In this document: one piece after another, positions 39,934 to 44,899 of the stretch
How positions within the stretch are numbered: position 1 is the first letter of the stretch
Layout of the letters: each line of letters opens with the position of its first letter
Source: a candidate division WWE3 bacterium RIFCSPHIGHO2_01_FULL_40_23
Lineage (GTDB): Bacteria > Patescibacteriota > WWE3 > UBA101185 > 2-01-FULL-41-18
DNA length: 64,000 nt
Direction: 5' to 3'
Assembly (NCBI GenBank): GCA_001772615.1
Contig: MEUZ01000003.1
Coordinates: 350,433 to 414,432, forward strand
Translations under genes and position numbers: made by a program
Notes under the pieces: model-generated
Databases searched by the model: none
Told to the model about the DNA's origin: nothing
Seen by the model: only the letters and a program-made list of their open reading frames with translations

Positions 39934-40608
39934 TCACAAAGATTTTACTATTGAATTATGAAGAAAAACAAAAGAATCGGGGGAAAGACTTGCCTGCCCG
40001 ACCAAAAACCCCGTAAGGCCGAAATCTTTATCAAGTAGCTGATCTATATTTTTTTCATTTACTGAACCTCCGTACAAAAGATCCCTGCTTCCTATAACTT
40101 CTCTTATTTTACTTATGGCTTCGGCCACTGCATCAGGGGGTGTTTCTTTATAACTTTCACCTGAAATATTCAGTGGATCCTCCCATACCAAAACTATCCT
40201 TTCATCAAAATCTTTCCTGAAATCTCTTGGAGACCTTAGGCAAAGTATTGGCATAACTCCTAAAGAAAGGCAGTTTTCAACTTTAAGCAAAACTTTATCA
40301 AAACTCTCCCTGCGCTCGCTATGCCCAACAATAGAATATCTGCAAAAATCTTTGACTTGAAACGCAGAGACCTCCCCCGTATGTGCACCTCCGGGGAATT
40401 CGGACACATCCTGCGCAGAGACGAATACGTTTGAGAGACCATATTTTTCAATTAAATTAAATACATCTGAAAGATAAGCAAGCGAAGGCGATATCGCAAC
40501 ATTAACATTGTCATTAGCCTTGTATTTACCGGCAAAGGAGTCAAACCAGGATTTAATTTCACTTAAATTTTTATTCTGTTTCCAGTTTGCTATCAGAAGC
40601 TTTTTCAT
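39934..40608 (-). CDS. tpiA: Triosephosphate isomerase
   Basis: IANWKQN, IVGHSERR, YGGSVN. Start placed at MKKLLIANWK. Confidence 0.85.
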   Translation of the reverse strand: MKKLLIANWKQNKNLSEIKSWFDSFAGKYKANDNVNVAISPSLAYLSDVFNLIEKYGLSNVFVSAQDVSEFPGGAHTGEVSAFQVKDFCRYSIVGHSERRESFDKVLLKVENCLSLGVMPILCLRSPRDFRKDFDERIVLVWEDPLNISGESYKETPPDAVAEAISKIREVIGSRDLLYGGSVNEKNIDQLLDKDFGLTGFLVGQASLSPDSFVFLHNSIVKSL

Positions 40609-41449
40609 AAATCTTATTAATGTTTGTGTATACAAGATCCGGAAGAGCTTCCAGATCTTCATGCACATAATCGTATCCAAGAGAATTTAAACATGCAAAT
40701 GCGAGAGGAATACTGCTGTAGATTGACTCCGAAAACACACACGAGACCAGCGAGTGAATAAAAACGTTTCCTCCGTTTTCTCCAAGATTTGAACGTGCAC
40801 ACCCCATAGGACATCCCGAACAGGAAGGATTACTACCAGCTTCAATAAGCATTTCGCCAACCTTCCCAAGCATCTCATTATACTGCCTGTCATATCTTTC
40901 CCGATTTTCAATCTGAAAACCGGACGTCGCCGAAACGACAATACCTTTAATACCAGCTTCTCCCAGCTTCTTAGAAAGCCTCTGATCACCAAATGCAAAA
41001 TACCCATCAATCAAAACCGATCCATCTAAAACCTCCACTCCGCACCGTCTTCCTGGAATACCAAGAGATTCCACAGCTGTATCCGCGGGAACCAAAACGG
41101 CGCCAGAGCCGTCAAGAACAAGAACACAAGGTTCCCTTGCCTTTTTTTCCAGTATAAAGGCGTCAACACCGGTATATTTAAGCCTTGTTGAAAGCCTGCC
41201 CCCTCCATAAGTATCCACAAACTTGCCTTCATCTAAAAAAGCCACACAGGTTTTTGATGCATAAGGGAAAAATCCATTTAAAGGACCTATGGAAAAGACA
41301 ATAGGATCCAGATTCTGATAATCAAGTACGAGTTTTGAGGCTGTCCCCACGCCACCAACATATGCTCTTAAATCAGGGTATGACTTCTTTGCCGATTCCC
41401 CCTTTTCCAAATCTACATGAACTACTGTAATACTATCCTCTCTAGACAT
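40571..41449 (-). CDS. Aldehyde:ferredoxin oxidoreductase (AOR) family protein, truncated (N-terminal domain plus CxxCxxxC segment only)
   Basis: AYVGGVGTASKLVLD...IVFSIGPLNGFFPYASKTCVAF aligns with the AOR N-domain. SNPSCSGCPMGCARS matches the AOR 4Fe-4S ligand motif. About 250 residues of the pterin-binding C-terminal domains are absent. Confidence 0.6.
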   Translation of the reverse strand: MSREDSITVVHVDLEKGESAKKSYPDLRAYVGGVGTASKLVLDYQNLDPIVFSIGPLNGFFPYASKTCVAFLDEGKFVDTYGGGRLSTRLKYTGVDAFILEKKAREPCVLVLDGSGAVLVPADTAVESLGIPGRRCGVEVLDGSVLIDGYFAFGDQRLSKKLGEAGIKGIVVSATSGFQIENRERYDRQYNEMLGKVGEMLIEAGSNPSCSGCPMGCARSNLGENGGNVFIHSLVSCVFSESIYSSIPLAFACLNSLGYDYVHEDLEALPDLVYTNINKIYEKASDSKLETE

Positions 41450-41717
41450 CTTCCTCCGCTTTAAACTCAAGCCCCTCTTCCTGGCCACCTTCCTCAACAC
41501 TAAAACATCCCTTGGGGCAGATCTCCGAAATTTTATTTACATCAAGATCATTTACCGACGGATCAAGATGAATATCATACCCTTTTTTTCCTCCCATAAT
41601 CCTTATCGGAGAGCCTTCAAAAGAAGCTTTTCCAACCTGTCTCTGCGCCGCCAAAACGCAAAGCTCACATCCGATACATTTTTCGGGAAAGGAAACCTTT
41701 AGTATTTTTTTATTCAT
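41442..41717 (-). CDS. 4Fe-4S ferredoxin
   Basis: CIGCELC...ICPKGC. 91 aa. Confidence 0.7.
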   Translation of the reverse strand: MNKKILKVSFPEKCIGCELCVLAAQRQVGKASFEGSPIRIMGGKKGYDIHLDPSVNDLDVNKISEICPKGCFSVEEGGQEEGLEFKAEEDV

Positions 41718-42747
41718 AAAAATTAAGGGCTAAAAGGCCTGGAAGCTTGTTTCCTGAAATATACTCAAGCATTGCCCCGCCGCCCATCGAAACAAAGCTC
41801 ATTTTATCTGTAATTTTAAGTTTATTCAAAGCCTCTATTGTATCGCCTCCTCCAACAAGACTAAACGCCTTGCTGTTAATAATCGCCTCCGCTATTTCCT
41901 TTGTACCTGATAAATAAGCGTCATCTTCTATTTTCCCCATAGGCCCGTTCCAAATAACAGTTTTTGCGGTATCAATTACATTGCTAAACATTTTAACTGT
42001 TTTAGGACCTATGTCCTCTTTGTCCCCAAGATAATCAATGGGAACAAGGATTTTGTAATTATTGTCAGTTTCATAGTTAATTCCAAGCCTTCCACCAAGA
42101 AGGACAAAGTCCGAAATCTTTAAAAATTTTGAGATAACGGGAAGCTTGGTTTCAAGCTTAATGCCTCCAAAAACCGCAACAAGTGGAGTTTCATAATTTG
42201 AGATAACTTTATTTATATTTTCAATTTCCCTTTCAAGCCTAAAGCCAGAGTAAGCATCTAAAAATTTCGGAACCTGTGAGATTGAAGCGTGCTCCCTGTG
42301 AGAAGTTGCAAAACACTCATTTACGTAAAGGTCCCCAAAGGAAGCTATGTCCTTGGCAAAGTTCTCATCATTTTTTTCCTCCCTTGGATCAAACCTTAAA
42401 TTCTCAAGAAGAAGAATGGTCCCGTCTTCCATCACTTTTAAAGTCTGATATAACTCTGTGCCTAAAGCTACATTTAGTTTTATAACGTCGTAACCTAAAG
42501 AAGTAAGGTACTCGGCAATAGGTGTAAGCCTTAACTCTTCTACAATTTTCCCTTCGGGCCTCCCAAGATGCCCCATCAAGATAACCTTCACGTTTCTTAA
42601 GACAAGGTAGTCAAGCGTCTCTCTCATTGCCTCAAGTCTTGAAGGATCGGTAATTACCCCATCTTGCACAGGCACATCAAGATCTCCTCGTACTAAAACG
42701 CGCTTTCCCTGAAGAAGAATTTTATTGAGCTTGTTTAGAGAGTCCAT
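41710..42747 (-). CDS. pgk: Phosphoglycerate kinase
   Basis: RVLVRGDLDVPV, 345 aa (somewhat short). Confidence 0.85.
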   Translation of the reverse strand: MDSLNKLNKILLQGKRVLVRGDLDVPVQDGVITDPSRLEAMRETLDYLVLRNVKVILMGHLGRPEGKIVEELRLTPIAEYLTSLGYDVIKLNVALGTELYQTLKVMEDGTILLLENLRFDPREEKNDENFAKDIASFGDLYVNECFATSHREHASISQVPKFLDAYSGFRLEREIENINKVISNYETPLVAVFGGIKLETKLPVISKFLKISDFVLLGGRLGINYETDNNYKILVPIDYLGDKEDIGPKTVKMFSNVIDTAKTVIWNGPMGKIEDDAYLSGTKEIAEAIINSKAFSLVGGGDTIEALNKLKITDKMSFVSMGGGAMLEYISGNKLPGLLALNFYE

Positions 42748-42930
42748 AGCAGGATAAATTCCTTTAAAACTGTGCCTTTAATTATAGTCCAAACCTTGAC
42801 CAAGTACATAAACCTATAGTGCAAATGAGAATTCCTTAACTGTAGGTTGACCCACTATCCAATCAATATTACAATATATATTGTACATACAGCTTCTACC
42901 AAATCAACAACCCCCAATAAATGCACCTAG

Positions 42931-43264
42931 ATGGTTTATGAAATTGATCAATCGGGAAAAATTGAGGACACTTCGAAGGATACTGTCCTTTGCATATCAA
43001 ATGGCTATTACTTATCAGTTAAATTAAAGGCGAAGACTAAAAGGCAGTTACAGAAAATATTTAGAAAAAACGGCCAAACTAGAAATTAAGAACGAATGCG
43101 ACCCGGATATTCATTTTAACTCAATAGGTAAGAAGTCAAGAGCACACCTGCGAGCTAAGGAAGTAGCAAAAGGAAAAATTAAACCTAAAAAAATTGTAAG
43201 CCTTAAGGATATTTTAAGAGAGCTTAATGTGACCGAGGTCGGTAAACGACTTGCGAATGCTTAA
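42931..43264 (+). pseudogene. Possible frameshifted small ORF (two adjacent reading frames of about 52 and about 60 codons)
   Basis: MVYEIDQSGKIEDTSKDTVLCISNGYYLSVKLKAKTKRQLQKIFRKNGQTRN* is followed in the +1 frame by ...KLEIKNECDPDIHFNSIGKKSRAHLRAKEVAKGKIKPKKIVSLKDILRELNVTEVGKRLANA*. Promoter-like TTGACC..TATAGT boxes lie upstream. Confidence 0.3.
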
Positions 43265-43358
43265 GCCAGAGCTGATTTTGCAACAAGTGCAAACTACACC
43301 TTCTGTGGGTCGGCATCCACTCGGTCAAGAAACAATATAGCAATATCCGTTGCTTCAG

Positions 43359-44462
43359 TCAAGACTTGACAACTTCGCTAACCATTTCAACAAGCCTGTT
43401 GGAGTAGCCCCATTCGTTGTCATACCAAGCAACAACTTTAAGAAGATCCCCGTCAATAACTTTAGTTAAAGACAAATCAACAATTGCCGAATATGGTGAG
43501 CCTATAACATCCGATGACACAAACGGCTCATAAGTTGCATCAATTACGTTTTTATACAGGGGATTTTTCTTAGCTTCCAAAAACGCTTCATTTACTTCCT
43601 CAACCGTCACTTCCCTTTTAACAAGCATTGTGAAATCCGATAAAGAACCGGTCATGACGGGAGCCCTAACTGAAAGCCCGTCAAACAAACCTTTCAGCTC
43701 CGGAATAACTTCAGTAGTAGAAACCGCGGCACCGGTTGTTGTTGGAACCAGATTAAATCCCGCTGCTCTTGCTCTTCTTAAATCATGGTGTAGAGGGGGC
43801 GGAGGCCCGTCCACAATCATCTGCTCTGCGGTAATAGCGTGAATTGTAGTCATGGAAGCTTTTAAAATCCCAAACTTTGAGTGAATTATTCCCGCAACCG
43901 GTGAAATGCAGTTTGTGGTGCAGGAAGCGTTTGATACAACTTCCTCGCCCAGGTATTTGTCAGAATTTACTCCAAGAAGATAAGTCTGAACTGAACCGCC
44001 CTTGGCGGGAGCCGAGATTATAACCTTTTTAGCACCGGCCTTAACATGTACCGCGGCATCATTATTGTTTGTATATCTTCCGGTGCACTCAAGCACAACA
44101 TCAATACTTAAATTTTTCCATGGAAGAAGCGCGGGATCCTTCTGCGATAAAACCAGAGTTTTTTTACCGTTAACTAAAAGGTGCGCCTCACCTCCTGAAG
44201 CAGCCTCAAAATGCTTTTTCTCGGGAGTGTTTCCTTCAACGTGGAATGTACTTCCTCCCTCTTCAACTTTCACTTCTTTATCATAAATGCCATAAACCGT
44301 GTCATATTTTAAAAGATGAGCTAAAACTTTGGCATCTGTAAGATCATTAACCGCTACAATTTCTATATCGGGTTTATCAAAGGCAATTTTAAAGGCGGCC
44401 CGGCCGATTCTGCCAAAGCCGTTAATAGCTACTCTTATGGGCATAGGTATTTTTCCCATCAT
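43359..44462 (-). CDS. gap: Glyceraldehyde-3-phosphate dehydrogenase
   Basis: VAINGFGRIGR and the catalytic SCTTNC. The start may be the internal MPIRVAING (44444). Confidence 0.9.
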   Translation of the reverse strand: MMGKIPMPIRVAINGFGRIGRAAFKIAFDKPDIEIVAVNDLTDAKVLAHLLKYDTVYGIYDKEVKVEEGGSTFHVEGNTPEKKHFEAASGGEAHLLVNGKKTLVLSQKDPALLPWKNLSIDVVLECTGRYTNNNDAAVHVKAGAKKVIISAPAKGGSVQTYLLGVNSDKYLGEEVVSNASCTTNCISPVAGIIHSKFGILKASMTTIHAITAEQMIVDGPPPPLHHDLRRARAAGFNLVPTTTGAAVSTTEVIPELKGLFDGLSVRAPVMTGSLSDFTMLVKREVTVEEVNEAFLEAKKNPLYKNVIDATYEPFVSSDVIGSPYSAIVDLSLTKVIDGDLLKVVAWYDNEWGYSNRLVEMVSEVVKS

Positions 44463-44629: not shown

Positions 44630-44899
44630 CTATTTGGCAAGAACTGAATCCAGCCAGTTTTTAAACATATCTCTTGTCATCGCGCCAATCTTTCTGTCAA
44701 TCTCCTTCTCGTCTTTAAGAATTACATAAGTCGGGATACTCATAACACCGTACTTTCCAGCCGCTTCCCCATTTGTATCAACGTCAATTTTACTAAACTT
44801 GATTTTACCCGCGTAAAGCTTTTCCGCTTCTTCAATTATCGGCTTCATTGCATGACACGGCCCGCACCAATCTGCAAAAAAATCAATAAATTCAAACAT
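44630..44899 (-). CDS. trxA: Thioredoxin (short, 89 aa)
   Basis: The WCGPC active site, with a strong AGGAGG RBS upstream. Confidence 0.8.
   Translation of the reverse strand: MFEFIDFFADWCGPCHAMKPIIEEAEKLYAGKIKFSKIDVDTNGEAAGKYGVMSIPTYVILKDEKEIDRKIGAMTRDMFKNWLDSVLAK

Follow-up and report, generated by a model that had tools for sequence, protein, structure and literature searches.

Trimmed in parallel: a reduced aldehyde:ferredoxin oxidoreductase and its small iron-sulfur partner in the glycolytic operon of WWE3 bacteria, a predicted electron-transfer pair

What would part of a tungsten enzyme be doing in the middle of a glycolytic operon? The question is raised by a 64,000-nucleotide stretch of contig MEUZ01000003.1 from a candidate division WWE3 bacterium, which was analysed as a whole and is referred to below as the window. 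The WWE3 bacteria, or Katanobacteria, are ultra-small bacteria known solely from metagenomic or single-cell genome sequences. Two small genes of the window stand between pgk, for phosphoglycerate kinase (PGK), and tpi, for triosephosphate isomerase (TIM), downstream of gap, for glyceraldehyde-3-phosphate dehydrogenase (GAPDH). The original prediction had placed a gene of the aldehyde:ferredoxin oxidoreductase (AOR) family and a small iron-sulfur (Fe-S) gene inside gap-pgk-tpi, and both were found there as open reading frames (ORFs; Table 1). We call their products mini-AOR and FDL. Our answer, which we hold with about even confidence, is that FDL and mini-AOR may be a repurposed two-cluster electron-transfer heterodimer, predicted to act as a ferredoxin-like partner of pyruvate:ferredoxin oxidoreductase (PFOR) and hydrogenase and to be made in step with lower glycolysis.

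The identity of the larger protein comes first. Against the Pfam family AFOR_N (PF02730) it scores 65.2 bits (E=8.6e-18; gathering score 29.8), and the observation of an AOR-like ORF is therefore correct and statistically solid. The CxxCxxxC motif that had been noticed with it reads CSGCPMGC and corresponds to residues 288-295 of the Pyrococcus furiosus enzyme. AFOR_C (PF01314) has no match in the mini-AOR in the Pfam scan. The AlphaFold2 model of the protein is confident (pLDDT 93.6, pTM 0.92), and when this model was compared with the PDB using Foldseek, the only significant matches were nine AOR-family chains (E 1e-12 to 1e-16, TMq ~0.6).

The original prediction described the ORF as truncated and without roughly 250 residues of the pterin-binding domains. 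The core is indeed absent, and the protein is ~290-310 amino acids (aa) shorter than full-length AORs of 580-605 aa, but the loss is internal and not terminal: both AOR ends are kept, and so is the segment with the fourth cluster cysteine. Read from its N-terminus, the mini-AOR comprises AOR domain 1, the CxxCxxxC loop, the stretch in which the fourth cluster cysteine lies, and the helices of the C-terminus. In the alignment of the family profile to P. furiosus AOR (1aor), residues 8-220 of the latter (domain 1) are covered, followed by residues 285-299. The remainder was traced in a MAFFT alignment of the mini-AOR family with its closest classical AORs from the genome scan described below, an enzyme of 580 aa from Methanothrix and a Caldisericaceae homologue (an ORF of 619 aa counted from the first possible start), all of which have the signature SIGPLNGFFP.A.KT in common. 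Past the Cys loop there is a jump of ~190 residues, after which the mini-AORs resume at 'HSLVAC.FA..IYSD...FSCLN.LGYDYTHEDLE', opposite the AOR segment 'NSLVGCLFARGVYTE...ALGAVGITKTKDDLQ'. The Methanothrix AOR maps full length onto 1aor (E=1e-79), and the resumed segment falls on D489-S-A-G-L-C494; C237 of the mini-AOR is therefore the counterpart of the fourth cluster ligand, Cys494, and H232 replaces Asp489. In all, ~46 aa have been deleted between domain 1 and the Cys loop, ~190 aa from that loop to the fourth Cys, ~40 aa before the last helix near the C-terminus, and two short loops inside domain 1. A different assignment, with 'CLNxLGYDY' as the first AOR pterin motif (CDELGLD, residue 338), was considered and rejected, since the MAFFT alignment and the 1aor mapping both put this region after Cys494, in domain 3.

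What the deletions have spared is the cluster. All four [4Fe-4S] ligand cysteines (C210, C213, C217 and C237) are kept, each in at least 97% of 75 sequences, and together they form a predicted [4Fe-4S] site, with their clustering in space judged by homology. The cofactor site has fared differently. The pterin, magnesium and catalytic residues of P. furiosus AOR are Arg76, Arg182, Glu313, Asp338, Asp343, His448, Lys450 and Asp489, with Arg76 linking the pterin and the cluster; their positions in the mini-AOR were mapped by alignment. Lys66 occupies the Arg76 position when the family profile is aligned to 1aor, Phe151 stands in for Arg182 (a Phe that is invariant across a 34-sequence alignment), and the segments with E313, D338, D343, H448 and K450 are deleted in the alignments to 1aor and to the classical AORs. 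By this mapping, the internal deletions have taken out those parts of domains 2 and 3 that bind the tungstopterin and carry out catalysis, and a bis-pyranopterin tungsten cofactor predictably cannot be held by the mini-AOR in the known way. Its descent and its N-domain place the protein in the AOR superfamily, yet it fails the defining features of an AOR enzyme: AFOR_N and the four cysteine ligands are there, and AFOR_C and the pterin and catalytic residues are not.

Could it still be catalytic, as an aldehyde or glyceraldehyde-3-phosphate:ferredoxin oxidoreductase (GAPOR), either with a scavenged cofactor or with pterin domains lent by another protein? An operon with gap and pgk would suit a GAPOR-like bypass, the locus goes back to an ancestral gene with the complete AOR fold (see below), and a lysine stands at the position of Arg76, the residue linking pterin and cluster in P. 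furiosus AOR. Against this stand the absence of AFOR_C, the five deleted residues with their segments, and the changes of R182 to Phe and of D489 to His. The enzyme does not appear to be split either, since the middle regions of four AORs, where the pterin binds, recovered nothing but the cysteine motif when searched by tblastn against the window and 76 family loci, and no AFOR_C-like sequence was found in the window or in the flanks of the 76 loci. Genes for cofactor biosynthesis or tungstate transport are absent from the window, which is ~7% of a genome of such size, and the Pfam scan of its 30 other long ORFs found no molybdenum-cofactor (Moco) or tungsten genes, PFOR, hydrogenase or further ferredoxin.

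The comparison with archaeal GAPOR deserves a word of its own. GAPOR is a monomeric pterin enzyme of ~650 aa that replaces GAPDH and PGK. The likeness extends to the AOR superfamily and the tie to triose-phosphate metabolism; unlike GAPOR, the present locus has both GAPDH and PGK, and the pterin core is gone. The model GAPOR_Arch (NF040818, cut-off 1300 bits) has no match for the mini-AOR at E<=0.1 and gives 17.9 bits for the 540-aa type discussed below, and the closest full-length relatives of the mini-AOR are AOR-type enzymes with a separate Fe-S subunit. The specific link to GAPOR that had been suggested for this operon thus finds no support. Because the cofactor core is lost, AFOR_C and GAPOR_Arch go unmatched, and gap and pgk are intact, the mini-AOR cannot, as far as its sequence tells, be a conventional AOR or GAPOR, and we regard catalysis of the scavenged or borrowed kind as very unlikely.

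The small protein encoded just upstream has been cut down in a similar way. It had been taken for a 4Fe-4S ferredoxin, and this holds in part: FDL is Cys-rich and has a one-cluster set, but it is not a canonical 2x[4Fe-4S] bacterial-type ferredoxin, as it has a single CxxCxxC set and scores 20.5 bits against Pfam Fer4, just below the cut-off of 21.1 (other Fer4 models are far below theirs). One CxxCxxC (C14, C17, C20) and a distal C67-P68 would be enough for one [4Fe-4S] cluster. C14, G16, C17, C20, C67 and P68 are kept in at least 97% of 77 sequences and are invariant among 26 paired sequences; C71 is not conserved. In BLASTP, FDL matches a ~150-aa protein encoded directly upstream of the Methanothrix AOR, at both its N-terminus (LKVAHPERCIGCLGC...) and its C-terminus (FCPHDVLRLEE). 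For its part, this Methanothrix subunit has matches among the models of four-cluster subunits, of the YdhY-like (PRK09898) and DmsB types. FDL does not belong to that type as it stands, for it retains the first motif and the last Cys-Pro and is without the middle part, so that the second and third Cys groups and the CxxCxxC of the fourth are absent. FDL is a remnant, with a one-cluster ligand set, of the four-cluster Fe-S subunit found alongside bacterial and archaeal AORs. Given its homology to the two ends of that subunit, both AOR partners have therefore been trimmed in parallel, each down to the ligands for one cluster, and we infer that the cluster FDL has retained is the one facing the large subunit.

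A gene of half the AOR length that overlaps the next gene, in a lineage whose sisters hold a long form, might well be a decaying relic or pseudogene of a former AOR or GAPOR pathway, and short length by itself could also arise from an assembly or frameshift error in a full-length AOR. These two explanations meet the conservation of the family. A homologue search through 5.8 billion proteins yielded 108 clusters with 35-58% identity to the mini-AOR, 189-309 aa long (272-309 aa for the full-length ones), with PF02730 in all but one short fragment and PF01314 in none; their named members belong to candidate division WWE3 or Patescibacteria. An exhaustive profile search placed ~40 short-type clusters at 50% identity ahead of the full-length AORs. 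A genome scan, with one genome per species, gave 76 mini-AOR loci, among them one in the closed genome CP006914 (WWE3 bacterium RAAC2_WWE3_1). The small Fe-S gene, the mini-AOR gene and tpi follow each other in that order at every one of the 73 WWE3/Patescibacteria loci with sufficient contig, usually within trx-gap-pgk-[pair]-tpi-lytR-holA-sortase. The spacing between the genes is mostly negative (mode -17 nt from FDL to mini-AOR and -4 nt from mini-AOR to tpi), which implies co-transcription and probably translational coupling. In the window itself the pgk stop overlaps the FDL start by 8 nt, the FDL stop overlaps the mini-AOR start by 8 nt, and the mini-AOR 3' end runs 38 nt into tpi, as had been noted for the tpi start.

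FDL and mini-AOR are under strong purifying selection. The ratio of nonsynonymous to synonymous divergence (dN/dS) was estimated by the Nei-Gojobori method, relying on the closest pairs since dS is near saturation in many others. Pairs of mini-AOR genes at 90-97% identity give 0.02-0.06, and the median of 44 mini-AOR pairs is 0.11; the medians for tpi and FDL are 0.11 and 0.15. When both genes are compared between the same two genomes, tpi is the less conserved one, with 83% identity against 94% for the mini-AOR in one example. FDL is 76-94 aa long among the mini-AOR partners. Within the clade, mini-AORs have diverged down to 33-35% identity.

Such numbers leave little room for decay: more than 70 species-level genomes have the ORF intact and at a stable length, the clade is monophyletic and deeply diverged, dN/dS is low in close pairs, the cluster ligands are kept, and the predicted fold is confident. 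The relic idea keeps its historical half, in that sister lineages do have an AOR-like protein of 538-550 aa at this locus; 'decaying' is the half that is contradicted, and a decaying gene is to us extremely unlikely. As for an assembly error, a full-length AOR cannot be reconstructed by correcting the sequence, because what is missing lies inside the protein, and the AOR segment of the C-terminus follows in frame within the same ORF. Nor is there room for more sequence, as tpi begins 38 nt before the mini-AOR stop. The identical mini-AOR protein of the window was found on two contigs, and the same architecture recurs in independent assemblies, including the closed genome, which brings the chance of an artefact practically to nil. 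On the strength of intact ORFs, stable length, dN/dS and fold, both explanations can be set aside as excluded.

Several smaller observations were made on the family and its loci. At 13 mini-AOR loci (L001, L002, L008, L009, L013, L016, L034, L039, L069 and L071-L074) gap directly precedes FDL with no pgk between them; in most loci pgk lies upstream of FDL. An apparent GAPDH-PGK fusion at locus L044 was discarded as an artefact from a run of N. One short AFOR_N-type protein of 260 aa, P0175, found in the representative search, is without the cysteine motif and has a similar C-terminal 'IYSQIPIAFACLEAVG..THEELE'; it may represent an independent or a further reduction.

Where did the mini form come from? 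The best full-length matches to the mini-AOR profile (E ~1e-41) are proteins of 538-550 aa with both AFOR_N and AFOR_C, from related Patescibacteria. Comparison at the syntenic position, which had been put forward as a check, proved informative here. Five sister loci (L084-L088) have the backbone uvrD-trx-gap-...-pgk-...-lytR-holA-sortase...pilO-pilN-S20-murJ, and the long AOR-like gene occupies the exact place that mini-AOR and tpi take in the window. It is preceded by a 78-79-aa CxxCxxC...CP protein at four of the five (not at L088), and no tpi lies within 6-7 kb at any of them. The sister proteins (P0146, P0258, P0288, P0145), in the order trx-gap-...-pgk-FDL-[AOR-like]-lytR-holA, have in common with the mini-AORs the Lys at Arg76, the Phe at Arg182 and a C-terminal 'LN/E-x-LG...HE' motif. 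They differ in having AFOR_C and the whole three-domain AOR fold: the model of P0146 matches 1b25 and 1aor with TMq 0.86-0.87 and rmsd 3.4-3.5 A. The P0146 family has Trp or Tyr at Asp338, and cannot be aligned by sequence to residues 357-512 of 1aor.

In a neighbour-joining tree of the N-domain (225 columns), the mini-AORs form one clade with 99% bootstrap support, sister to the 540-aa type with 73%. Together with the shared locus, the tree indicates that the mini form arose once, from a full-length AOR-like gene already adjoining gap and pgk. The FDL/mini-AOR pair can be shown, at the level of sequence, to descend from a two-subunit AOR with a catalytic and a poly-ferredoxin subunit. Within the sister group, P0145 and P0151 (550 aa; positions 7001-8653 of L087) have lost CxxCxxxC and the fourth Cys, and the 78-aa protein upstream keeps its cysteines. 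They look like a reduction in the reverse direction from that of the mini-AOR, the cluster gone and the pterin domains kept.

What, then, would the pair do? On the proposal made at the outset, FDL and mini-AOR would no longer oxidise aldehydes; they would form a heterodimer carrying two [4Fe-4S] clusters, in which the remnant of AOR domain 1 would be a scaffold that holds one cluster and docks the small subunit. The heterodimer would pass on low-potential electrons as a ferredoxin-like carrier or adaptor, would be produced along with lower glycolysis, and would plausibly work with a two-subunit PFOR and a cytoplasmic NiFe hydrogenase. The electron-relay reading draws on what selection has kept, namely both Fe-S sites and the domain-1 scaffold, and the alternative of a 'repurposed small redox protein', already named in the original prediction, fits the same evidence. 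We consider an electron-carrier heterodimer the most economical reading. The suggested clients come from a published account of a WWE3 genome, which describes an alpha/beta PFOR (for pyruvate or another 2-oxoacid), an ADP-forming acetyl-CoA synthetase and a type 3b NiFe hydrogenase (PMC3812714). Among the electron carriers listed there is a protein described as 'ferredoxin oxidoreductase-like', and the main text mentions no ferredoxin gene (PMC3812714); it is from this inventory that the pair is proposed as the ferredoxin-like partner of PFOR and hydrogenase.

Several points weigh against this proposal. In the P0145/P0151 subgroup the gene has been retained at the same locus after all cluster cysteines were lost, so its retention there is independent of the cluster. 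PFOR and hydrogenase are connected with the pair through the gene inventory of one paper. The strict adjacency to tpi goes back to a single ancestral event and is weak evidence of a functional tie, and the four cysteines of the mini-AOR are grouped by homology.

The first of these points leads to the main rival of the electron-carrier reading, a non-redox scaffold or regulator, that is, a pseudoenzyme acting on TIM, PGK or GAPDH, whose cluster would be structural or would sense redox state or oxygen. The invariant place in the glycolytic block and the overlap with tpi would suit such a role, the cysteine-less sisters suggest a function independent of the cluster, and four residues that are new to the mini-AOR clade and conserved in it (H232, C253, N255 and H263) point to a new surface or site. 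However, within the mini family at least 97% of the sequences of either protein have the full ligand set, and the Fe-S partner is retained throughout, as a relay would require; moreover, the solved structure for this type of TIM is named simply triosephosphate isomerase (7r7m). We see this pseudoenzyme as a genuine possibility, though rather an unlikely one. A bolder form of the electron-carrier proposal would make the pair a hitherto unrecognised heterodimeric class of ferredoxin that arose when a tungsten enzyme lost its catalytic core, and the main low-potential carrier of Katanobacteria, through which PFOR and hydrogenase would be coupled to the flux of glycolysis; in its boldest version the pair would dock on the co-translated TIM, PGK or GAPDH and so tie triose-phosphate turnover to Fe-S redox without pterin. 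This we think improbable, and mention it as a speculation.

The coordinates of the genes and motifs discussed here are collected in Table 1.

Table 1. The glycolytic block of the window and the cysteine motifs of the mini-AOR (positions in the 64,000-nucleotide window)
Feature	Position	Strand	Length	Remarks
trx	44630-44899	minus		first gene of the tight minus-strand block
gap (type I GAPDH)	43359-44462	minus		TIGR01534 378.8 bits, cut-off 367.2
gap-pgk spacer	42748-43358		611 nt	no Rfam match, no long ORF
pgk	41710-42747	minus	345 aa	Pfam PGK 336 bits
FDL (small Fe-S partner)	41442-41717	minus	91 aa	Cys-rich
mini-AOR	40571-41449	minus	292 aa	Pfam AFOR_N, no AFOR_C
C210-S-G-C213-P-M-G-C217 (CSGCPMGC) of mini-AOR	40799-40822 (codons)	minus		equivalent to P. 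furiosus AOR C288-Y-A-C291-P-I-G-C295
H232-S-L-V-S-C237 of mini-AOR	40739-40756 (codons)	minus		remnant of the AOR 'D-x-x-G-L-C' motif (MAFFT alignment)
tpi	39934-40608	minus	224 aa	Pfam TIM 136 bits
lytR, holA, sortase gene	3' of tpi in the block	minus		gene order in the window

The conserved order of the block is trx-gap-pgk-FDL-miniAOR-tpi-lytR-holA-sortase, with gap as its first glycolytic gene. The AFOR_N ORF spans 40571-41500, and the likely true start is the ATG at 41449, which has GGAGG five bases upstream and agrees with the N-termini of the homologues. Translation of tpi begins at the ATG at 40608 (MKKLLIANWK).

The tpi product has features of its own. In the usual TIM, loop 6 is of the Glu-Pro-x-Trp-Ala-Ile-Gly-Thr-Gly type; here it reads WEDPLNISGESY, with the non-canonical stretch VWEDPLNISGESY. 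The protein scores under the curated cut-off of every NCBIfam TIM model, despite its clear Pfam match, and the catalytic N, K, H and E are kept in the 73 loci. Its closest solved relative is 7r7m, a 216-aa TIM of the same short type (E=1.3e-45) with the same WEDP.NIS loop 6. Jaffe et al. (2020) describe a grouping of some TIM sequences from Katanobacteria with those of archaea and read this as lateral transfer (PMC7304191), which fits an insertion of tpi at the locus in the ancestor of the mini-AOR lineage.

The other glycolytic genes show minor peculiarities. PGK is short, its 345 aa matching the 379-position Pfam profile as two stretches, and the NAD-binding domain of GAPDH is also matched as two stretches, apparently with an insertion near residues 60-95. 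The gap-pgk spacer holds a 52-aa plus-strand ORF (42931-43089, MVYEIDQSGKIEDTSKDTV...) that has no homologue at the other loci; in related genomes this interval carries variable small genes on the opposite strand. Zero RNA families reached threshold in an Rfam scan of the entire window. The 30 other long ORFs of the window are, by Pfam, mostly housekeeping genes (RNase J, PNPase, IF-2, NusA, DnaK/DnaJ/GrpE/HrcA, TrmD, MurT/GatD, UvrD, an AddA-like helicase-nuclease, FemAB and KsgA), with a few domains of unknown function (DUFs) and three ORFs without a Pfam match. Among the ORFs of the window, Fe-S cysteine motifs occur only in FDL and the mini-AOR.

In the literature on AOR or tungsten in WWE3, Katanobacteria, Patescibacteria and the candidate phyla radiation (CPR), we found no description of a mini-AOR family. 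Its members appear in databases as 'aldehyde:ferredoxin oxidoreductase', as 'AOR N-terminal domain-containing protein' or as hypothetical proteins, and the AOR label would lead metabolic reconstructions to include, wrongly, an aldehyde-oxidising or GAPOR-like step. All the WWE3/Katanobacteria loci examined have the pair as a fixed feature, within the metabolic operon that is most conserved in them, and if it is truly the ferredoxin of the cell, a gap in the electron-carrier inventory would be filled. Its evolutionary anatomy is clear-cut and somewhat surprising; the function we propose for it is an interpretation. It would be a clean natural example of an enzyme cut down to an electron-transfer module, with four ligands and the matching end-pieces of the partner kept, and the series from the classical two-subunit AOR through the 540-aa form to the 280-aa mini form offers a tractable case of an Fe-S scaffold that outlives the loss of its cofactor.

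How the pair compares with the enzymes already known may be a fitting way to end. Relative to the structurally characterised P. furiosus AOR (1aor), FOR (1b25) and WOR5 (6x1o), the mini-AOR has retained the fold and sequence of domain 1, the equivalents of Cys288, Cys291, Cys295 and Cys494 and the C-terminal helix segment; it has lost ~300 residues from domains 2 and 3, and the pterin ligands and catalytic residues have been deleted or replaced. The closer parallel is with the two-subunit AORs, namely AorAB of Aromatoleum (8c0z), BamBC (4z3w) and YdhV/YdhY of E. coli, in which the gene for the Fe-S subunit lies directly upstream, as it does here. The AOR operons of Methanothrix and Caldisericaceae (L077-L081) likewise have the gene order of the mini-AOR pair, in addition to the common signature in the large subunit. 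The partners differ in size, with one cluster in 76-94 aa for FDL and four cysteine motifs in ~150 aa for the two-subunit AORs. In contrast to the AorAB-type systems, a gene for an FAD subunit was not seen at the mini-AOR locus, and the large subunit is without a catalytic core. By analogy, the most that the mini-AOR pair would do is the work of the electron-transfer half in AorAB, BamBC or YdhVY.

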